Below are positions 2,934 to 30,919 of a DNA stretch of 32,000 nucleotides, piece after piece (position 1 is the first letter of the stretch; each line of letters opens with the position of its first letter). Position numbers and translations under genes: made by a program. Location: positions 1 to 32,000 of the forward strand of contig PRDJ01000041.1 of the NCBI GenBank assembly GCA_003345555.1, written 5' to 3'. Source of the stretch: Candidatus Thorarchaeota archaeon. GTDB taxonomy: Archaea; Asgardarchaeota; Thorarchaeia; Thorarchaeales; Thorarchaeaceae. The notes beneath the pieces are model-generated. The model had not been told where the DNA came from. It did no database searches and was given only the letters and a program-made list of their open reading frames with translations.

Positions 2934-3086
2934 ACTCAAAGTTTCACACTTGTTCACAACACGCCGAGAGATACTACGGTCGTGAGATGTGGTCTCGTCT
3001 TCTGCAAACATATTTGTGGACGTGAAATGAATCAATGCAGACAGTCCCTAGTCCAAAAAGGGGCCAAGATGGTGCAGGGAAACGAG

Positions 3087-5690
3087 ATGAGCATATCGAC
3101 GCCTATGAGGCAGCAGTACACGCAGCTGAAAAGACAGTACCCTGACTGCCTGCTTATGTTCAGGCTAGGAGACTTCTTTGAGTTATTCAATGAAGACGCC
3201 AAGACCGCGAGTCAGGTCCTCGACATAGTATTGACTGCGCGCGGTGAAGGTGTCGACAAGTGGCCCATGTGCGGAGTGCCGTACCATGCCGTTGAGACCT
3301 ATGTGGCAAGACTGCTGCAAGCCGGGTACACAGTCGCGATGGCAGACCAAGTTGAAGATCCTGCAAAAGCGAAAGGACTCGTCAGACGCGAAATCGTCCG
3401 AGTCTTGACGCCCGGTACTTTGCTCGAACCCGGGATGCTGCAGGAGGCCTCAAACAACTACCTTGTTGCAATGATAGAGCATGAGACCAGGGTGGGTATT
3501 GCTGTAGTCGACGTCTCGACCGGCGAGTTCGCAGTAACTGAGTTTGAGGGTAGGATAACCGGTGAGAAAGCTGTAAATGAACTTGGGCGACTTGGGCCAG
3601 CTGAGCTCCTGTTACCTGACTCTGTCTCGAAACGAGCAGACGTCAAGGCAGTGTTGGAGAATACAGGAGCCAAGATCACATTCAGGACCGACCTTGATTT
3701 CTCATCTTCATCCGCTGAGGAGCGGCTGAAGGAAAGATTCAGAGTGGCCACCCTTGAAGGATACGGCCTCTCTGGGAAGAGAGTAGCAATTGGGGCCGCG
3801 GGCGCGATATTGGCATATCTCAATGAGGTCCACAAGAACAATGCGATAACGCTGTCGGGGATCAGGGCATATTCTCTTGACGATTTCATGATTATCGACA
3901 ATATCACAGTAAGGAATCTCGAACTGGTCAGGAATGCTAGGGACGGGACACCAAGAGGGACACTCCTGAGTGTAGTCTCCAGCAGCGAGACATCGATGGG
4001 CAAGAGGAAACTGAGGAGTTGGATACTGCAGCCCTTGATGAATGAGGAAGCTATTGGAATGCGGCTTGATGCAGTGGAGGAACTTGCCCGAGGAGCTCTT
4101 ATTCGGCAAGCGCTGTCTGAGAGTCTTCGCCATCTAGGTGACCTTGAGAGGATAACCAGCAGGACAGTGTTTGGGACTGCCAATGGAAGAGACCTAGTTG
4201 CCCTCAGAAACGCATTGACGCGAATTCCGTCCGTTAAGAAAGCACTGACAGGCTGCAGTTCAATGATACTGAAGGAGGCGGCGGAATCAATCGACTCCTT
4301 ACCTGAGCTGGCGGACATATTGCAGAAAGCGCTGGTTGATGATCCGCCTGTAAGCGTGCGTGAAGGAAGAATGATTCGAGAGGGCTACAGTGATGACCTT
4401 GATCAGCTGAAGAAATCTATCTCGTCCGACAAGAAATGGATTGCATCACTTCAAGAGCGAGAACGCAGGCGCACCGGCATCAAGACATTGAAGGTGGGAT
4501 ACAACAAGGTCTTTGGCTACTATATTGAAGTTAGCAGTTCCAATGCCAGCCATGTTCCAAAGGACTACGAAAGAAAACAGACACTCGTTAGTGGAGAGAG
4601 ATACATCACACCGGAACTGAAGGAAAAGGAATCTTCTGTATTGGCCGGAGAAGACAGAATCAGTGAGTTGGAGTATGAGCTTTACGAGAGACTAAGAACT
4701 CAAGTCAAGGATGTTATGAACGTTCTGCAGCGTGACTCAGATGTCGTGGCCACAGTCGATGCTCTCTCCAGCTTGGCTGAGACTGCCGTGAAGAGAAGGT
4801 ACGTCAGACCAAGAGTGCACACAGGAACACGGATCAGCATTGTCGACGGCCGTCACCCTGCCCTTGAGATGATTCTGGGACCGAACGAGTTTGTGCCGAA
4901 TAGCGTGGATATAGGTGATGGCGGCACGACGCTCCTCATTGTGACTGGACCCAACATGGCCGGAAAGAGCACTTACATGAGACAGGCGGCGCTCATTGTG
5001 TTAATGGCACAGATGGGGTCATTCGTGCCCGCAAAGGAAGCCGAGATAGGACTCGTTGATAGAATCTTTACAAGAGTGGGCGCATTTGATGACCTGACAG
5101 CCAAGCAAAGCACGTTCATGGTAGAGATGATTGAGACTGCAAACATACTGAACAATGCCACTGAGAGAAGCATGGTCGTGCTAGACGAAATCGGCAGAGG
5201 AACCTCAACGTTCGATGGCATGGCACTTGCATGGGCTGTGGCAGAACGCATCGTACATCTGAAAACCCGAACCCTGTTCGCAACCCACTTCCATCAACTA
5301 ACGGATATGTCAGGCTTATACCATGGAGTCAAGAACGTACACACACTTGCTCGAGAATCAGGAGACACAATCATCTTTCTTCACAAGGTTGTTGACGGCG
5401 GCACGGACAAGAGCTATGGAGTTCACGTAGCAGCTCTAGCAGGCATCCCGGAACCAGTTGTCAGGAGGGCTAGAGAGATCCTAGCTCGACTAGAGCAGGA
5501 GAATGCTACAGACCTTGGTAAGACTACCGGCACGTCCACTGGGTTGCTTCAGACGTCTCTCGAACCTCTGATGGCTGATGACCCGCTGATAGAACGCATT
5601 ACCCATATGGATCTTGAGAGGACTAGTCCAATTGACGCACTGCTCCAGCTCAAGGAGATGCAGGACGAGGTCAAGAAACGAAAGAGATAG
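3087..5690 (+). CDS. mutS: DNA mismatch repair protein MutS (MutS1 type)
   Basis: TPMRQQY, FRLGDFFELF (Phe-X-Glu mismatch motif), PMCGVPYH, GPNMAGKSTY (Walker A), DEIGRGTST (Walker B), FATHFH, SYGVHVA. Start placed at ATG 3087 by homology (3069 possible), not the ORF-track 2982. Confidence 0.97.
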   Translation: MSISTPMRQQYTQLKRQYPDCLLMFRLGDFFELFNEDAKTASQVLDIVLTARGEGVDKWPMCGVPYHAVETYVARLLQAGYTVAMADQVEDPAKAKGLVRREIVRVLTPGTLLEPGMLQEASNNYLVAMIEHETRVGIAVVDVSTGEFAVTEFEGRITGEKAVNELGRLGPAELLLPDSVSKRADVKAVLENTGAKITFRTDLDFSSSSAEERLKERFRVATLEGYGLSGKRVAIGAAGAILAYLNEVHKNNAITLSGIRAYSLDDFMIIDNITVRNLELVRNARDGTPRGTLLSVVSSSETSMGKRKLRSWILQPLMNEEAIGMRLDAVEELARGALIRQALSESLRHLGDLERITSRTVFGTANGRDLVALRNALTRIPSVKKALTGCSSMILKEAAESIDSLPELADILQKALVDDPPVSVREGRMIREGYSDDLDQLKKSISSDKKWIASLQERERRRTGIKTLKVGYNKVFGYYIEVSSSNASHVPKDYERKQTLVSGERYITPELKEKESSVLAGEDRISELEYELYERLRTQVKDVMNVLQRDSDVVATVDALSSLAETAVKRRYVRPRVHTGTRISIVDGRHPALEMILGPNEFVPNSVDIGDGGTTLLIVTGPNMAGKSTYMRQAALIVLMAQMGSFVPAKEAEIGLVDRIFTRVGAFDDLTAKQSTFMVEMIETANILNNATERSMVVLDEIGRGTSTFDGMALAWAVAERIVHLKTRTLFATHFHQLTDMSGLYHGVKNVHTLARESGDTIIFLHKVVDGGTDKSYGVHVAALAGIPEPVVRRAREILARLEQENATDLGKTTGTSTGLLQTSLEPLMADDPLIERITHMDLERTSPIDALLQLKEMQDEVKKRKR

Positions 5691-7337: not shown

Positions 7338-8897
7338 ATGAAGTTGCAGGCAGACCTCGTAGTATTCAACGGAAACATCATCACGATGGATCCGGAGAAT
7401 CCAACGGCCACGGCATTAGCAGTCAAGAACTACAAGCTTATCGCAGTGGGTAGCGATACACAGGTCTTTGACCTTGTGACGAATGCCCGAAAAGCCATGG
7501 ATCTAGGAGGGAAGACCGTAGTTCCGGGTTTCGTGGATGCCCACACTCACATCACAAACGCTGGCATGAGAACTTCGCAAGTGAATCTGGAATCGAAGCT
7601 TTCTATCGCAGAGGTAAAACAAGCCCTGAGTGATGCGCTTTCGAGATGTAGCCCCGGGCAGTGGGTTCGCGGGTTTGGATGGGATGAGAGCTTTTGGCCT
7701 GAGAAGAGGTATCTCACGGCTGCCGATTTGGACGAGGTCGCCAAAGAATTCCCAATTGCTGTCGATAGGGTTGATGGGCATCTGACCTCTGTCAACAGTC
7801 TTGCATTGAAGAAGCTGGGCATTTCTCTGGATCAGGAAGGCGTCCTCAAGGACAAGAGGGGAAAGCCCACCGGAGTACTGAGGGATGTTGAGAATCTCTG
7901 GAAGAAGGTGGCTCCCTCACCTGAAGAAATCAGGCAAGGCGTCTTGGCAGCGAGTCGGATCGCCAGTGAATGTGGCATCACAACACTCGTAGATAACGAA
8001 CGGCCCGGCATATTCCGGTACGTAAGGGCATGCGAACAGGAGGAGCTTCTTGGCGTAAGAATGGTGGTCAACCAACACGCTGAAGTCATAAAGAACATGA
8101 TCGAGCTTGGAATCACGTCAGGCATGGGCGGATCCATGGTGAAAATTGGCGGCATGAAGTCGTTCATGGATGGGTCGATTGGGGCGAGGACTGCAGCTTT
8201 GTCACAGCCCTATAGTGATGACAAGCGCAACAAAGGTAGGATGCTCACATCGCAGAAAGAAATGACGGCACTGCTGAAGAAAGCCATCAAGAACGAAATA
8301 CAAACTGTCACACATGCAATCGGAGATGATGCGATTGAGACTCTTATTTCTGCGTTCGAAAGCTTGAGTGAGGATGAAAAGGCCAAAGTCAGGAATCAGC
8401 GGCACAGAATAGAACACGCGGAGATGATCAGCGAAAGCCAGATTCGACGGGCGGTAGCTCTAGGTTTGATTCTATCGATGCAACCCAATTTCGTTGGCGT
8501 GTGGCAGCAGAAAGGGGGTCTCTATGAGCAAAGACTTGGGCCAGAGCGAGTTTCGAAGATGAACATGTTCAGAGTGGCACTTGATAATGGAGCACGTTTA
8601 TGCTTCGGCTCAGATGGGATGCCGTATGGTCCGCTCTACGGCATTTGGTCGGCAATAGCGCATCCGAATCCGAAAGTCAGGATTACAGTCGAAGAGGCAC
8701 TGCGCTGCTACACGATGGAGAGTGCTTACTCGGCATTCATGGAGACGAAAATAGGAAGTCTCACCGAAGGAAAGAGAGCCGACTTTGTGATTCTCTCCAA
8801 CAACATCATGACCGTTCACCCACGTAGAATCAGGGACATCAATATTGAAATGACAGTCCTAGGCGGCCGCGTCGAGTTTGGCTTGGCAGGCGGGTGA
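7338..8897 (+). CDS. YtcJ-like metal-dependent amidohydrolase (amidohydrolase_3 family)
   Basis: DLGGKTVVPGFVDAHTH (HxH), GFGWDES, KSFMDGSIGARTAAL, HAIGD, RIEHA, GSDG, GSLTEGKRADFVIL. ATG 7338 preferred. Confidence 0.9.
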   Translation: MKLQADLVVFNGNIITMDPENPTATALAVKNYKLIAVGSDTQVFDLVTNARKAMDLGGKTVVPGFVDAHTHITNAGMRTSQVNLESKLSIAEVKQALSDALSRCSPGQWVRGFGWDESFWPEKRYLTAADLDEVAKEFPIAVDRVDGHLTSVNSLALKKLGISLDQEGVLKDKRGKPTGVLRDVENLWKKVAPSPEEIRQGVLAASRIASECGITTLVDNERPGIFRYVRACEQEELLGVRMVVNQHAEVIKNMIELGITSGMGGSMVKIGGMKSFMDGSIGARTAALSQPYSDDKRNKGRMLTSQKEMTALLKKAIKNEIQTVTHAIGDDAIETLISAFESLSEDEKAKVRNQRHRIEHAEMISESQIRRAVALGLILSMQPNFVGVWQQKGGLYEQRLGPERVSKMNMFRVALDNGARLCFGSDGMPYGPLYGIWSAIAHPNPKVRITVEEALRCYTMESAYSAFMETKIGSLTEGKRADFVILSNNIMTVHPRRIRDINIEMTVLGGRVEFGLAGG

Positions 8898-8907
8898 AGG
8901 TGGACAG

Positions 8908-10680
8908 ATGGGCAGAATCAGGACCCTCAGTCCGGACTTGGTGTCTTTGATATCCGCAGGCGAAGTTATCGACGGACCGTGGTCAGTGGTCAAGGAACTC
9001 ATTGAGAACTCGCTCGATGCTGCATCCAAGCACATAGACATTGAAATCGTGAAAGGTGGTACAGCCGCAATAAGAGTTTCTGACAACGGTTCGGGCATCA
9101 CGAAGGATGATTTGCGACTGTGCGGGCTGCGTCATTCCACGAGCAAGATAATGGCCAAGAACGACCTCGAATCCATAGCAACGTTCGGGTTCCGCGGCGA
9201 GGCACTTGCCAGTATGGTCGCCGTGGCTGATGTTGAGATAACCAGCCGATCTTCAAATGAGGAGACCGGGATGAAAGTTGTATCAAGAGCGGGCGAACAT
9301 CGAATCTATACACATGCATCAAGACCACAAGGAACAACCGTAGAGGTCTCGAATCTTTTCAGTCATGTACCAGCTCGAAAGAAGCATTTATCCTCTCCAA
9401 AGACCGAGGGGCAGCGCGTTGTCGATGTCGTTTTGCGCCATGCAATTCTGAGACCGGATGTAGGTTTTAGACTCATTAGGGATGGCCAGACAGTATTGGA
9501 TTGCCCGCCCCAAGCTGCAAGAGACAGGGTCAATGCCATCTGGGGTACAGATGTTGCCAAGAACCTAATGGAAGTAGATTACATCAAGGATGAGACCAGG
9601 GTCACTGGTTTTGTCGCCAGACCGCCTATCTCGAGAGGAAATCGTTCCCGAGAGTACTTCTACGTCAGGGGCAGACCCATAGAGGATGGTCAACTCAGTG
9701 GAGCACTTGAAAGCACCTACTCTTCTCTTCTAATGCGTGGACGCTACCCTATTGCTGCTCTAGACATCTCCCTAGACATAAGCCGTATCGATGTCAATGT
9801 GCATCCGACGAAGCGAGAAGTGAGGATAGCAGGAATTGAGGAAGTCAAGGCTGCAGTGAAGGAAGCCGCAAGAGAGGTCTTGGTTCTAGAGACTCCACCA
9901 GAAGAGACCGCTTTCGTTCTCAGTTCGAAGGCCAGAGTCGTCTCTGGACCACCGGGAGTAGTTGCCCAAGAGATTTCAGAGATCGCAGAGCATTCGCATG
10001 CAGAGTCGTCTGCAGTAGATGCGCTCGTTGAAGCGGATACGCTCGAAGCAACCGCTATTGCTGAGACGTATGAGACCATGCAGGTCCCCACGCTGGGCGG
10101 GGTCTTCAGAATAATAGGTCAGCTTCAGAACCTCTACATACTTCTCGAGTTCGAAGATGGCCTCGTGCTAGTTGATCAACATGCGGCACATGAGAGAGTG
10201 ATGTATGAGCGGCTGCGGCGCGTACTGGACAGTGGTGCAATGCCCGTGCAAGAACTGCTTGAGCCCATAGTTCTTAGACTCGAACGCGGTGATTGTGAGC
10301 GAGTACTGGAGCTCGTACAACCATTGGATAGGCTCGGGTATACCGTCGCCAGCTTTGGCGGCAATGAAGTACTGGTTTCAACACTCCCAGATGTACTTGG
10401 GCATCAGGTCTCCGACAAGGAGGTCTTGGCCATCGTTGACGAGATCCTTGATCTCGGCGAAGACCATACCTCGGAACACTTCATGGACGACCTCGTTAAG
10501 CTAACGGCATGTCACGCAGCCATCAGAGCTGGCCAGCCACTGAGTACCGAAGAGATCAGGAATCTCCTTACCACCATGGCCAGCACCCCCAACCGTTACA
10601 ACTGCCCCCATGGGCGACCGACAATCGTCCGGATAACCTCAGATGAGCTGAAGAAGAGGTTTGGCAGAGTGCAGCCTTAG
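8908..10680 (+). CDS. mutL: DNA mismatch repair endonuclease MutL
   Basis: GHKL motifs VKELIENSLDA, DNGSGI, HSTSKI, TFGFRGEALAS, GTTVEV; DVNVHPTKREV; endonuclease motifs DQHAAHERVMYE, ACHAAI, CPHGRP; clamp motif QELLEP. ATG 8908 preferred. Confidence 0.97.
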   Translation: MGRIRTLSPDLVSLISAGEVIDGPWSVVKELIENSLDAASKHIDIEIVKGGTAAIRVSDNGSGITKDDLRLCGLRHSTSKIMAKNDLESIATFGFRGEALASMVAVADVEITSRSSNEETGMKVVSRAGEHRIYTHASRPQGTTVEVSNLFSHVPARKKHLSSPKTEGQRVVDVVLRHAILRPDVGFRLIRDGQTVLDCPPQAARDRVNAIWGTDVAKNLMEVDYIKDETRVTGFVARPPISRGNRSREYFYVRGRPIEDGQLSGALESTYSSLLMRGRYPIAALDISLDISRIDVNVHPTKREVRIAGIEEVKAAVKEAAREVLVLETPPEETAFVLSSKARVVSGPPGVVAQEISEIAEHSHAESSAVDALVEADTLEATAIAETYETMQVPTLGGVFRIIGQLQNLYILLEFEDGLVLVDQHAAHERVMYERLRRVLDSGAMPVQELLEPIVLRLERGDCERVLELVQPLDRLGYTVASFGGNEVLVSTLPDVLGHQVSDKEVLAIVDEILDLGEDHTSEHFMDDLVKLTACHAAIRAGQPLSTEEIRNLLTTMASTPNRYNCPHGRPTIVRITSDELKKRFGRVQP

Positions 10681-22011: not shown

Positions 22012-22761
22012 ATGGAAGACGAATGTGGCCAGTGGGAAAGGCTTGCAGGTGAGTTCGCTGAAGCCGAGAAGTACTTTCAGGCTGCGAACCAGTACAAGCA
22101 GGCTGCAAGCTGCTATCTCGACCATGTTGTGGAGATGACCCGGAAAGCAGCCGAGTACTTTCATCGGTATGCAGAAATGAGCTATGAGAAAGGCGACCAC
22201 AAGGCTGCTGCTATGGCCTACTTCGAGGCGGCCAGTCAGTATCGGCAGGTGGATGAGCAGGCCACTGCACTCACTCTCTTCGAGAACGCAGCAAGAGAAG
22301 CCCTCGAGGGAGGGCTGACCGAAATCGCAGCGCAGTCGTACCTTTGGGCTGCCCATGCATGTCACAAGCTAGGCAATGCGGACTACTTTCTTACTTGCGC
22401 CGAAGAGATGGCAAAGCTCTATGACAAGGCTGCGGAAGAAGCTCTCCAAGATGGAAAAGCAGAGAGAGCTCTCATAGATCTGTCTCTCGCGGCCATGGGG
22501 TTCGCAACGATTGAAAAGGCACCCGAGGCAAAAAAGAGGATAGACAGGGCAAAACGCATAGTGGACAAGACCGCTTGGGATTGGCTCAAGACGCTCCTGT
22601 CATTCAGCCAAGCTCTGACCGAGAACCGGTTTGATGACGCCCGCGACCTTCTGAAGATGTTTAAACAGGAGGAGACAATCATGGGAGTGATGGATGCCTG
22701 TCTAAGCATCCTTGAAGAAAGAGAGAAGAAGCGAAAGAAGGTTGGGTCAAAGAAACCCTAA
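22012..22761 (+). CDS. All-helical TPR-like protein resembling soluble NSF attachment protein (SNAP)
   Basis: Repeated AA..Y..AA..Y helices (AANQYKQAASCY; AAAMAYFEAASQY; IAAQSYLWAA). ATG 22012 preferred; the upstream 45 codons are not protein-like. Confidence 0.7.
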   Translation: MEDECGQWERLAGEFAEAEKYFQAANQYKQAASCYLDHVVEMTRKAAEYFHRYAEMSYEKGDHKAAAMAYFEAASQYRQVDEQATALTLFENAAREALEGGLTEIAAQSYLWAAHACHKLGNADYFLTCAEEMAKLYDKAAEEALQDGKAERALIDLSLAAMGFATIEKAPEAKKRIDRAKRIVDKTAWDWLKTLLSFSQALTENRFDDARDLLKMFKQEETIMGVMDACLSILEEREKKRKKVGSKKP

Positions 22762-24008
22762 GCTACTCTGACAAGAGCTGTCTTGGCCGTCTCCTTTTCT
22801 TGAGTAGGTTCCTTTGTCTTGATTGTGACAAGACCATCCCCACGACCCACTGCTTTCACATAGAGCAGGAATCTCATCTCCTCGCCCGTAGCAAGGAACT
22901 GGATTGACTTCTGGTCATTCCCCAGTGAGAGCTGAAGTCCAGCTGATAGCTCAGTGGTGACTGTGATATTGCTTGCCGCACCATGTCCGCTGTTCTTCAA
23001 CACAACGTCGATCACAACTTCATCACCGACTGAACAAGACAGCTGCTGCGGGTTCAGAGACAATTCGAGCAGAGGCGGTGCAGGAGAAACCCCGAATCTT
23101 ATTGTATTGCTCTGCCTGTTCACGAGGACTTTATCGCCTTCCAGTCTCATCTTGATTGGCCCTACTACTCCACCGCCATCCAGAATCGGGGTCACTTCCA
23201 TGAGCCACGAATCTTCCGTAGCGACGTTGCCAGCGATTTTCGGCATTTTCGACATGACAAGGTTCGACGATAAGGAAACACGGTAGTCAACGACGCGGAC
23301 TGAAGCAGGACATCTGTACTTGACTTCAAACTCGATTGGCGTCTTCACAAGAACAGTATCTTCCTTTCGGCCGGCCCATTCTACGACGACGTTTGTATCA
23401 AGCGCCAATTTCAATGATGAAACTATGAAATCGAGTAAGGTCGACTCTGAAGGCTTACCCTTGAATTGATCAACAGCCTTCTGAAGCTCCTTCCGCGTTA
23501 CGCCCTCGCCCTCGCAGAGTATTGCTACAGCAATGGCGGCCAGATTGAGAGCAGGGTTTCTTTCCTCTGAAGACCCCGTTAATCGCCCCTCTGCTTTTCG
23601 GAGGAGATTCACGGCAGTCTCGAAGCTTCGGGCGGCAAGGTAGCAGAGGACGGCCGTCGATAGGGCTCGAGCAGACTCACCACCCTTTCTGTCGTGATGG
23701 TAATGGTCAGATGCTTCAGAGTACATACTGCCGGCTTCTTGGAATCGACCGTCGGCCACCAAAGCTTCGGCTGCAGTGGTCTTGATGTCACCTGCACGGA
23801 CATGGTCCTCCGATTGCAGGGCACAGTTTGCCGACTCTCGGAAGTATTTCACAGCAAAGTCGATTTCCTCTGCTTCCAGAAACAGTCTTGCAGCATGCTC
23901 GTATTCCTGACTCGCATAGTCAGGATAGTTGCTCTGAAGCTCATTCAACGCCTTCTCAATATACTTCTTCGCTTTGGAAACGGGATCTCGCTTAAGGAAT
24001 CCAACCAT
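22758..24008 (-). CDS. SNAP/TPR-like N-terminal solenoid fused to two Ig-like (CARDB/DUF11-like) domains
   Basis: About 200 aa helical repeats (YEHAARLF, YFRESAN, GRFQEAGSMYSEASDHY, AVLCYL), then beta-rich domains (VGDEVVIDVVLKNSGHGAASNITVTTEL). No signal peptide or TM segment seen. ATG 24008 or GTG 24020. Confidence 0.7.
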   Translation of the reverse strand: MVGFLKRDPVSKAKKYIEKALNELQSNYPDYASQEYEHAARLFLEAEEIDFAVKYFRESANCALQSEDHVRAGDIKTTAAEALVADGRFQEAGSMYSEASDHYHHDRKGGESARALSTAVLCYLAARSFETAVNLLRKAEGRLTGSSEERNPALNLAAIAVAILCEGEGVTRKELQKAVDQFKGKPSESTLLDFIVSSLKLALDTNVVVEWAGRKEDTVLVKTPIEFEVKYRCPASVRVVDYRVSLSSNLVMSKMPKIAGNVATEDSWLMEVTPILDGGGVVGPIKMRLEGDKVLVNRQSNTIRFGVSPAPPLLELSLNPQQLSCSVGDEVVIDVVLKNSGHGAASNITVTTELSAGLQLSLGNDQKSIQFLATGEEMRFLLYVKAVGRGDGLVTIKTKEPTQEKETAKTALVRVA

Positions 24009-24078
24009 CTGCGGTGTCACCAGTCAATGAGGGTCGAGTTTAAGGTGGGTTTTGTGTGTTTCGGCTGATGATGATAGC

Positions 24079-25292: not shown

Positions 25293-25742
25293 CTATTTCA
25301 GTCCATGCTTCCTTGCTACCTCACTCCAGAACTTCTTGACCGCCCATGGCACTGCCAAGAACTCTTCGCGGAACTCATCGAAATTGAGTCCCTGAGCCAT
25401 CATCTCTTGCGAGGTGCCTATCATGCCCCGGGACTCATCAAAATCAAAACAGACCTCAGCATATTTCCTGTTGCATCCTAGCAGGTCAAGGAGGACGTCG
25501 GCTTTCTTGTCCGGAGGTATGTTAGCCAAGGGATAGACATCACAATACACTTCGACCCATTTCTCTCTTGGGCGAATCCATATGGTATATCGGAAATAGC
25601 CTTCTTCAGCTGTTCGTCCGGGAGCAGCAGGCCTGTCATCCTTTCTTTCACTGAATAGAAGCTCAAAGATGCCGTCCTTGTATGTATACTTCATTTTCAA
25701 GAAATCTAGATACTCCGATATCTGAGCCTTCAGGTCTGTCAA
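25293..25742 (-). CDS. YbjN / type III chaperone-like fold protein (second copy)
   Basis: IPPDKKADVLLDLLGCNRKYAEVCFDFD...GLNFDEF parallels IPDGKRKGAYEKLLKSNAKLAEVSFGID...GISYDAF of the 10871 gene. Start uncertain (TTG 25742, GTG 25778 or ATG 25694). Confidence 0.65.
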   Translation of the reverse strand: MTDLKAQISEYLDFLKMKYTYKDGIFELLFSERKDDRPAAPGRTAEEGYFRYTIWIRPREKWVEVYCDVYPLANIPPDKKADVLLDLLGCNRKYAEVCFDFDESRGMIGTSQEMMAQGLNFDEFREEFLAVPWAVKKFWSEVARKHGLK

Positions 25743-25863
25743 GTGTCTCTCCCTACGCCGCAAAGAGACGTGACCCACATAAGCTTATTCTTTAATCGAC
25801 GGCCTCAGAACGTCAGTGACTTATTCACTATCCGAATCACCTCAGCTTAAATCTGAGAAGTTC

Positions 25864-28889: not shown

Positions 28890-29894
28890 CTACTCCTTCT
28901 CCTTTGCCTGCTTTCTTGAAGCTCCCTTGTACATGAAAACGAGAGCCACTGCCATCAGTAGGCCCCCTGCTACAAGATCTCCACCCACATATGCTCCCAC
29001 GAGTTCTTGTATAGGCGCGAACGGAATCTCCAGTACGCCAAGGCCCATTGCCAAGAGGACTGCACCGATGATTAGGAGAACGAAGCCGAGCCCGAGCCCC
29101 ATTGCTCTGAATGCTGCAGACCGCGGATACTCACTTTCTATGACATATCCGGTAGAGGCAGACACAGACGCTTTGAAGCTCTTGTTGCCATATCGATACT
29201 GAATCTCCCAGACTGGAACATGAACCAAGAATGTCTCTCCAATGTTGACCTTATCGTCTCTCGATTCAATTTTCGAAATCTCTTGCGTAATCAATCCAGT
29301 CTGTCGGTCAAGCGCAATCTGCTTAGCGGCTGCCTTCGCTCCATCCTCAGACATCTGACTATGAAGCAATGTGCCGCCATACTGCTCCGCGTGGTCATGG
29401 CTGAAGTACTCCTTCGCCCTAGTCGGAATCGCCATCGATTTTATGTCTTGGTCAATCGCGCCTACTCCGGGAACCTTAATCTCGTAGTTCCTGCTGAATT
29501 CGCCAGACTCCGGTTTCCAGAAGAAATCGATCCTCTTGTAGGCCCCGCGGTACTGCGGCCATTCATCGCTGAACGTAGCATCCCGGCCAAGGCCTTTGTA
29601 CGAAGACTGTGCATCGATGCGACTCACCCAGAAGGGGTACCAGATTTGCTCAGCCTTTAGCAGATGGGCGGTCGATCCAAGATCACCGGGCACGCCAAGC
29701 TGCTTTGAGACCCAGTCTAGGAGCGTTGTGAATGACTGATTCTGATCGAAGTGGACACGAATCATGTAGTGCTCCTTTAGCTTGGCTCCTTCAACGGTCT
29801 GTGCAGTCCCACAGAATGGGCATATCAACAACAAATCATCAGGGTTAGATTTGATGTCTCCACCACAAAACGCGCACTTTGTCACTGCTATCAC
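28890..29894 (-). CDS. Zn-ribbon membrane-anchored protein, YdjG-like (paralogue 2)
   Basis: CAFC..CPFC ribbon; QIWYPFW; VPVWEIQYRY..K...VSASTG.V...P; two C-terminal TM helices. GTG start overlaps the upstream stop (GTGA) after a GGGG purine run. Confidence 0.7.
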   Translation of the reverse strand: MIAVTKCAFCGGDIKSNPDDLLLICPFCGTAQTVEGAKLKEHYMIRVHFDQNQSFTTLLDWVSKQLGVPGDLGSTAHLLKAEQIWYPFWVSRIDAQSSYKGLGRDATFSDEWPQYRGAYKRIDFFWKPESGEFSRNYEIKVPGVGAIDQDIKSMAIPTRAKEYFSHDHAEQYGGTLLHSQMSEDGAKAAAKQIALDRQTGLITQEISKIESRDDKVNIGETFLVHVPVWEIQYRYGNKSFKASVSASTGYVIESEYPRSAAFRAMGLGLGFVLLIIGAVLLAMGLGVLEIPFAPIQELVGAYVGGDLVAGGLLMAVALVFMYKGASRKQAKEKE

Positions 29895-30919
29895 CCCTTC
29901 TCCTCTCGCTGAGGCATCATCAGAATCCTGATGCCGAGAACTGTCATTATGATTCCCACCACTGTTGCTGCGATACCAGCTATCATCACACTGCCCGGTT
30001 CGGTGATATACCCACGATAGGCGAACTCACCGCCCACTGCAGCCACGATAATGCCGAGGATTGCAAGGAGTGTCCATAGCGCCCTCTGCCCTTTCGTGAT
30101 AGGAATCTCTCCGACAAGCACTCTGCCAGTGTGTCCGTCCATGGCGCACTTGAAAAGACCACCGCCGAACTTATACCGAATCAGCGCAAACGGGGCTTGA
30201 AGGTAAGTCGTACCCCGAACAGCCGTTGTTGTTCTGCAGTCGAAAAGCTCAGAAAGACCGGACTTGGCCTGAGCCCTGTGCCTGTCAGCGACTTGACCAC
30301 TGGCACTCTTCTCGTATTCATCTGCTCCTATCTCGGCATTGAGCATGGTGGGCTTTAGGTCCTTGATCTTCTCGAAATCGTATCGCACTGTGTCTTTCAA
30401 GTCAATCGCCTTGAGGTAATCTTCCAGACCGTAGAAACGGGACCCTTTCCTTGCCAACAATGGTTCATCTGTATCGGAGTGAATCTCACTTTGCACCGGC
30501 ACATAACCGGTCTCGTACGCGGTGTAGGTTTCAGTACGAGTGTGGCCCTGCGAATCTCTCACGGTCCGTGTTCGTTGCACCGGAACCTGTACTGTCTTGT
30601 AGCCCTTGTACCAGCTATCAGCCTTCACCTTGGAAGTCCAGACGGGAACGAAGATCAGATTGTTCTCCACGACTTGAGCGCCTTGCACGAGAGCCTTGTT
30701 CGCCCCCTTGTGCTTCCCAAGATACGCACGAAAACCATCTGTTCGCTCTCTGTCGCCTATGGCCATTTCCATAAGGTGGTCCCCAATTGCTTTCCCTTCT
30801 ATGGTCGTCGTACTGCCACAATAGCTGCAGGTAATGACCATATCATCGGGACCAATTCGGACGTTACCATTGCAGACCGGGCACTTGAAAATGTCCGCTG
30901 CCTGTGCTTCTGTCCCCAT
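29891..30919 (-). CDS. Zn-ribbon membrane-anchored protein, YdjG-like (paralogue 1)
   Basis: CPVC..CSYC ribbon; IFVPVW; AMDGHTGRVLVGEIPITKG resembles B. subtilis YdjG AMNGQTGKVVGKPPISRG (from memory); two C-terminal TM helices. Confidence 0.72.
   Translation of the reverse strand: MGTEAQAADIFKCPVCNGNVRIGPDDMVITCSYCGSTTTIEGKAIGDHLMEMAIGDRERTDGFRAYLGKHKGANKALVQGAQVVENNLIFVPVWTSKVKADSWYKGYKTVQVPVQRTRTVRDSQGHTRTETYTAYETGYVPVQSEIHSDTDEPLLARKGSRFYGLEDYLKAIDLKDTVRYDFEKIKDLKPTMLNAEIGADEYEKSASGQVADRHRAQAKSGLSELFDCRTTTAVRGTTYLQAPFALIRYKFGGGLFKCAMDGHTGRVLVGEIPITKGQRALWTLLAILGIIVAAVGGEFAYRGYITEPGSVMIAGIAATVVGIIMTVLGIRILMMPQREEKG

Follow-up and report, generated by a model that had tools for sequence, protein, structure and literature searches.

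Tetratricopeptide repeat (TPR) and immunoglobulin-like (Ig) modules are protein–protein interaction modules, and several described systems resemble in one part or another the protein that we present here. The SNAP family (alpha-, beta- and gamma-SNAP, Sec17 and the derivative HAP40; PF14938) comprises proteins of ~290 amino acids, helical throughout and with no other domain, which bear an N-terminal apolar membrane loop and a free C-terminus binding the AAA+ partner Sec18/NSF (PMC8143792, PMC2139964). The large TRAPP subunits TRAPPC8, 9, 10 and 11 (Trs85, Trs120, Trs130) exceed 1000 amino acids and combine a GTPase-like N-terminal domain, an alpha-solenoid and four Ig-like domains; the solenoid of Trs85 consists of five helix pairs and is preceded by an amphipathic helix (PMC10152722). 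A third comparison is provided by the Ig-type sandwiches of DUF11/CARDB repeats (PF01345, PF07705; e.g., the CARDB of P. furiosus PF1109, PDB 3idu), MG domains and the luminal domain of TRAP-beta. Here we describe a protein of 416 amino acids encoded in a stretch of 32,000 nucleotides from a Candidatus Thorarchaeota archaeon (contig PRDJ01000041.1, positions 1 to 32,000; the window hereafter), in which a SNAP-type TPR solenoid is followed by two Ig domains of the DUF11/CARDB type. We read it as no enzyme and no surface protein of the classical kind, and its membership in the SNAP or TRAPP machineries cannot be demonstrated. The best-supported reading is that two prokaryote-wide interaction modules have been joined in a protein conserved enough for core Asgard cell biology, and we see an even chance that it is a soluble cytoplasmic scaffold or adaptor, lineage-specific and usually present once per genome in most Asgard lineages.

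The gene (Table 1) occupies the coordinates that the earlier note had given it. The open frame (22758..24020, minus strand) is intact, close homologues are almost all 415–417 amino acids long with their first residue at the methionine encoded at 24008, and the whole-genome match of the family ends at the same base (G000:C41:22761-24008), so that translation starts at the ATG at 24008 and not at the upstream GTG at 24020. Conservation is strong, with a mean column identity of 62% among 83 Thor homologues, and no catalytic family was matched by this protein or by diverse members of its family in Pfam-type searches. The AlphaFold2 model built from the alignment of these 83 homologues (mean predicted local distance difference test, pLDDT, 92; predicted template modelling score, pTM, 0.74) consists of ten helices in five hairpins (residues 9–203) and then two beta-sandwiches (residues 206–308 and 314–415), which map to nucleotides 23393-22761 and thus bear out the two sandwiches proposed earlier for 23396-22761. 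The pTM value, the superposition of the ESM Atlas model of the protein on a Promethearchaeota cluster (template modelling score, TM, 0.71 over 393 residues) and the invariance in the Thor alignment of residues at the solenoid–Ig junction (T205, W211, A212, and G213) together suggest that the domains would be held in a fixed mutual arrangement.

The SNAP likeness of the helical half, which had been read from the letters alone, is recovered by profile searches. The protein scores 28.2–28.3 bits against the Pfam SNAP model (cut-off 25), which also matches 23 of 32 diverse family members (E < 0.01), and a pan-Asgard profile run against the PDB sequences finds alpha-SNAP (6e-12), Sec17 (9e-12), and gamma-SNAP (1e-11) ahead of the next natural TPR protein (8e-9), with alignments spanning SNAP residues ~94–279. 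A profile made from Thor sequences alone matched no PDB sequence at E 1e-4, the SNAPs being reached only by the pan-Asgard one. Both by profile and by unbiased structure search the SNAPs are the closest solved relatives of the solenoid. One of the two motif pairings proposed earlier, AVLCYL with KAALCHF, is reproduced in the hidden Markov model alignment; the other is displaced, the alpha-SNAP MGRFTIAA lying one hairpin before the Thor DGRFQEAG, which we take as the register ambiguity normal for repeats.

This resemblance brings up a first alternative, that the protein is a SNAP-like AAA+ cofactor whose solenoid would present a helical-bundle substrate to an unfoldase such as Cdc48, in the manner of the SNAP/SNARE/NSF system, and that the family is the prokaryotic root of the SNAPs. 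The part that aligns, SNAP residues ~90–290, would be compatible with it, since alpha-SNAP lacking up to 160 N-terminal residues is reported to stimulate the NSF ATPase with little change (PMC2139964). We regard this alternative as unlikely, however. Only ~190–200 residues align, to SNAP residues about 86–292 (the C-terminal two thirds); the first ~85 residues of SNAP, site of the apolar loop, have no counterpart in the Asgard protein, and the free C-terminal tip is replaced, the solenoid running on into the first Ig domain. The Pfam model itself is unspecific: of 14 control genomes, 4 contain matches to it (B. subtilis, D. radiodurans, B. thetaiotaomicron, and M. acetivorans), and the 416-residue protein is only its third-best match within its own genome. 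SNAP-tagged TPR clusters are also present in Bathyarchaeota, Methanobacteriota, Nitrososphaerota, Chloroflexota, and Thermodesulfobacteriota, and the solenoid half queried alone leads to prokaryote-wide SNAP-type TPRs. The failure of the Thor-only profile to reach the SNAPs counts against a cofactor as well, and so does the lack of any linked AAA+ gene in the 24 loci compared; a SNARE link did not appear either, although no search aimed at NSF or SNARE homologues was made. Since SNAP-type TPRs are widespread in prokaryotes, the solenoid is a SNAP-type TPR and not a SNAP, and by itself it is no eukaryotic signature.

Behind the solenoid stand the two Ig-like domains that the earlier note had recognized, and both are of the DUF11/CARDB type. 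The second shares with DUF11/CARDB repeats and their relatives the fold and the motif N-x-G-x-G-x-A (N339, G341, and G343). The DUF11 score of the protein itself, 21.7 bits, falls just below the cut-off of 24.6, and CARDB and TRAP_beta pass their own Pfam cut-offs in other members of the family. Exhaustive profile searching retrieved giant DUF11-repeat proteins at E-values down to 5e-38, solely through residues ~297–416; the tandem 204–416 can be superposed with TM 0.76–0.79 on DUF11 repeats that follow one another in surface proteins of planctomycetes, and the Ig half queried alone returns DUF11/CARDB repeats. Weak matches of family members to ASH, HYDIN, TRAPPC13, Transglut_C, and adaptin families are uninformative, since ordinary DUF11 proteins give equally weak cross-matches to the same families.

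Domains of this kind are typical of surface proteins, and one could suppose that the protein is exported or associated with the envelope, reaching the surface without a classical signal; NCBI names one member "COG1470 family protein," and the TRAP_beta match above cut-off, to a luminal domain, occurs in a Hod member. Such a surface location seems highly improbable to us. A hydropathy scan (windows of 19 residues) combined with inspection for lipobox cysteines revealed no signal peptide, lipobox cysteine or transmembrane segment in any of the 32 diverse members, the N-termini of which are charged. Their highest 19-residue hydropathy is 1.83 (median 1.33) and the peaks correspond to a buried part of the solenoid around residues 108–116. 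The N-terminus folds straight into the TPR solenoid, and the gene shows no linkage to genes for the envelope or for secretion. In contrast to DUF11/CARDB surface proteins, the Asgard protein has two copies only, placed behind a TPR solenoid and without export signal. As far as can be judged from these sequences it is apparently soluble and cytoplasmic, neither secreted nor lipid-anchored, and the cytosolic position proposed earlier for its Ig domains holds up.

Ahead of the first helix lies a short hydrophobic and basic motif (Table 1), for which the Thor consensus is MFxFLKxDP, with M1, D8, and P9 invariant or nearly so among the 83 sequences. FLK-, FMK-, or FLD-like motifs recur among the Heimdall, Odin, and Ran subfamilies, but the Loki and Hel types lack them. 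The model has low confidence here (mean pLDDT 61 over residues 1–10, and below 50 for residues 1–4). The earlier comparison of its GFL with the membrane loop of SNAP had to be abandoned, because the SNAP segment that bears the loop is the one without counterpart; the motif might instead be a peptide docking on a membrane or on a partner.

The succession of an alpha-solenoid and Ig domains had also been read as the layout of large TRAPP subunits and adaptin-type coats, and hence as a hint of homology or of a functional link. The order is indeed that of TRAPPC8/9/10/11, with a solenoid of about ten helices in both cases (Trs85 has five helix pairs too, and its amphipathic helix ahead of them), and one can imagine a tether ancestral to TRAPPC8–11 with its solenoid docked on a TRAPP-like core and its Ig domains as arms. 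The best whole-model matches of a Foldseek search are large TRAPPII subunits (7u06_A and 7u05_A, E 1e-10 to 7e-10), language-model features point to TRAPPC11-like (0.79) and TRAPPC8-like (0.78) clusters, scores so low that they are leads only, TRAPPC13_C is matched below cut-off in 6 of the 32 members, and the genome has two Bet3 genes. We nevertheless judge such a proto-tether very unlikely, because the match to 7u06_A superposes poorly over the whole chain (TM 0.29, root-mean-square deviation ~20 A) and because none of the Pfam families of TRAPPC8–11 (Trs85, Trs120/TRAPPC9, TRAPPC10, and Foie-gras/Gryzun) is found in the protein at E-values up to 1, with a single sub-threshold match to NTS_TR130 (E 0.0035) among the 32 members. 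The Asgard protein has 416 residues as against more than 1000, its solenoid starts at residue 9 with no GTPase-like head before it, and it has two Ig domains instead of four. Ordinary DUF11 surface proteins give equally weak matches to TRAPPC13, ASH, and adaptin, and once the two halves are queried separately the TRAPP signal vanishes in favor of SNAP-type TPRs on one side and DUF11 repeats on the other. The first Ig domain alone matches a TRAPPII chain J, but only at E 1e-3; in the further structural-alignment searches no TRAPPII chain appears among the best 50 matches of each, which is a missing match and not an exclusion. Distribution separates them as well: Bet3 (PF04051) was found in 84 of the 400 Asgard genomes, nearly all of them Thor-type (78/85 in family f1, 1/1 in f2, and 4 elsewhere), in agreement with the literature that places TRAPPC3 homologues in Thor (PMC10933270), and the solenoid–Ig family in 299, so that the two distributions are decoupled. 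In the genome itself the Bet3 genes pair with roadblock-like genes and not with the gene studied here. For all these reasons we treat the TRAPP resemblance as one of architecture only, and we find no support for kinship or a functional tie with those subunits or with adaptins.

The arrangement of those Bet3 genes is worth recording in its own right. They form two tandem modules (L022 and L021, G000:C77:29794-36084), each with a roadblock/longin-like gene (310–333 amino acids) followed directly by a Bet3/TRAPP-domain gene (157–168 amino acids), and two Bet3 matches ~3 kb apart are the usual pattern in the 78 of 85 Thorarchaeaceae genomes with Bet3, with almost no case elsewhere in the phylum.

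The 400 Asgard genomes were scored for presence at E <= 1e-10 with the pan-Asgard profile. The 299 positive genomes include 70 of the 90 of high quality and represent 64 of 85 genera, spread over more than 20 families, mostly with one match per genome and open frames of ~415–465 amino acids. The gene is near-universal in families f1 (84/85), f11 (22/22), f14 (17/19), f21 (14/14), f22 (123/135), f23 (4/4), and f28 (3/3), and absent or weak in f8, f13, f15, f27, f29, and f30; named members come from Thor, Odin, Hel, Loki/Prometh, Heimdall, Hod, Ran, Sif, and Hermod metagenome-assembled genomes (MAGs). A word-indexed search with the pan-Asgard alignment gave almost only Thor sequences. Outside the phylum we sampled 397 genomes: 191 from a different archaeal phylum, 101 and 100 from the phyla to which a Desulfobacteraceae MAG and a Planctomycetota MAG respectively belong, and five single genomes. 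No match in them spanned both modules, all being partial matches to the TPR or to the second Ig domain only. As far as searched, the family thus appears to be restricted to Asgard archaea, and the architecture was not widespread among the other prokaryotes sampled. A possibly analogous bacterial architecture is seen in an Atlas cluster of Thermodesulfobacteriota (433 amino acids, feature score 0.76, a lead only), where proteins of much the same size likewise combine a BamD/YfiO-type TPR with a DUF11 Ig domain. Proteins of the BamD type are lipoproteins of the envelope. No full-length homology to the Asgard protein is detectable, and in the 101 genomes of the phylum of the Desulfobacteraceae MAG the partial matches cover the TPR only. 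In the literature searched on Asgard archaea together with alpha-SNAP, Sec17, TRAPPC, the ASH domain or PF14938 we met no account of the family, which is apparently undescribed.

We therefore return to the scaffold or adaptor as the preferred reading. A rigid ten-helix solenoid of SNAP/Sec17 geometry carries the two DUF11/CARDB-type sandwiches at its C-terminal end and could grip a helical or extended stretch of a first partner, probably through the helices predicted to line the binding groove. The Ig pair may offer a second protein-binding surface, in which case the protein would bridge two partners, and in some subfamilies the N-terminal motif might add a weak contact with a membrane or a partner. 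In Thor the invariant polar residues of the solenoid lie mostly in helices 1, 3, 5, and 7 (K14, E23, K54, Y55, R57, E58, E98, S100, D101, H102, K138, and R142). Two points weigh against this reading. The Thor-invariant solenoid residues are lost at the scale of the phylum, where only A32 and A39 are kept in the pan-Asgard alignment, which makes a single shared ligand doubtful. In addition, DUF11/CARDB domains are normally extracellular, and a non-classical export is conceivable.

Table 1. Position of the gene, its domains and the convergent paralogue within the window
Feature	Position	Strand	Basis
Complete coding sequence of the 416-residue protein (stop codon 22758-22760)	22758..24008	-	Open reading frame list, homologue lengths, whole-genome match
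N-terminal hydrophobic/basic motif, residues 1-9 (MVGFLKRDP), ahead of helix 1	23982..24008	-	Thor alignment
SNAP-type TPR solenoid, ten helices in five hairpins, residues 9-203	23400..23984	-	AlphaFold2 secondary structure, profile against PDB, Pfam SNAP
Ig-like beta-sandwich 1, residues 206-308; divergent, MG/cohesin/CARDB/TRAP-beta class	23085..23393	-	
Ig-like beta-sandwich 2, residues 314-416; DUF11/CARDB-type repeat	22761..23069	-	Pfam, profile, superposition
SNAP-type TPR paralogue, 249 residues, without Ig domains; convergent neighbor	22012..22761	+	Pfam SNAP, N-domain profile

The gene is closely accompanied by a paralogue of 249 residues that shares the SNAP-type TPR head and lacks the Ig domains (Pfam SNAP, 24.8 bits; positions 11–199 of the N-domain profile align to its residues 90–279 with an independent E-value of 2e-7). 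Its true start is M46 of an open reading frame of 294 amino acids. The 3' ends of both genes overlap by 4 nucleotides, and across the Thorarchaeaceae they overlap or lie a few bases apart; of 16 genera of this family, nearly all keep the neighbor next to the gene in convergent orientation, even where the outer flank is rearranged. Confined to Thor-type genomes, this paralogue is more conserved than the 416-residue protein (66% mean column identity in 21 genera-level homologues) and has four invariant cysteines (C5, C34, C117, and C230). Co-folding of the two proteins, both supplied as alignments, scored 0.00 against a mark of 0.32, a value from which neither binding nor its absence can be read. 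Contigs from two RNA libraries (wetland metatranscriptomes) fall on the gene of the paralogue and on the HMG-CoA reductase gene and none on the gene of the 416-residue protein, contigs being unable to show absence. Elsewhere in the genome, a paralogue of 610 residues cut by a contig end (L020, G000:C17:1-1858) has the same SNAP-type TPR head, one domain like the second Ig domain and ~270 further residues, and more N-domain paralogues are located at G000:C77:48160-48993 and G000:C66:5578-6546.

Around this pair the genes are housekeeping ones (a class II aminoacyl-tRNA synthetase, HMG-CoA reductase, an AlaX-like editing protein, a membrane glycosyltransferase-like protein, and Nre). A comparison was made over 24 loci of Thor, Loki-type, Hod, and other families; in every lineage examined the gene or its orthologue lies among housekeeping genes, with synteny kept within lineages only and no neighbor shared across the phylum. 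Thor loci keep AlaX and the SNAP-like paralogue, and Loki-type families show a conserved same-strand run (L014:5534-10906, L043-L054) of an NAD-binding protein, a 4Fe-4S/HdrA-like protein, FlpD/MvhD, the orthologue, and AMP/thymidine phosphorylase. In one Asgard family a C1orf109-like gene (PF15011, E 6e-12; L060:9138-9776, plus strand) sits two genes downstream of the orthologue, and in another the gene of a VTT-domain membrane protein (L057:3135-4166) is three genes away.

Farther off in the window, full bacterial-type genes for MutS, with all five domains (2982-5690, plus strand), and for MutL (8878-10680, plus strand) are found. Once Thor-type genomes are set aside, the closest relatives of this MutS within the genome collection belong to bacteria (Aminicenantes, Planctomycetota, Nitrospirota, and Clostridia; 42–48% identity). 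Three open reading frames on the minus strand, 25293-25778 (161 amino acids), 28890-29894 (334 amino acids), and 29891-30919 (342 amino acids), gave no Pfam match at E 0.001.

For the question of eukaryotic ancestry, the order of solenoid and Ig domains is no evidence for descent of the TRAPP subunits, and the Pfam SNAP label is no eukaryotic signature. We allow only a slim chance that eukaryotes built SNAPs, large TRAPP subunits or both from a scaffold of solenoid plus Ig domains of which this family would be the surviving archaeal form. If true, a cytoplasmic trafficking-type adaptor would already have been present in the Asgard ancestor. Most proposed links of Asgard archaea to eukaryotic membrane traffic are patchy, whereas some three quarters of the sampled Asgard genomes have this family. 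In it, Ig domains of a surface type stand in a protein that is apparently cytoplasmic, following a helical domain with SNAP and Sec17 as its nearest solved relatives, and for pull-downs and structural studies with cultured Asgard archaea it is thus a well-defined target.

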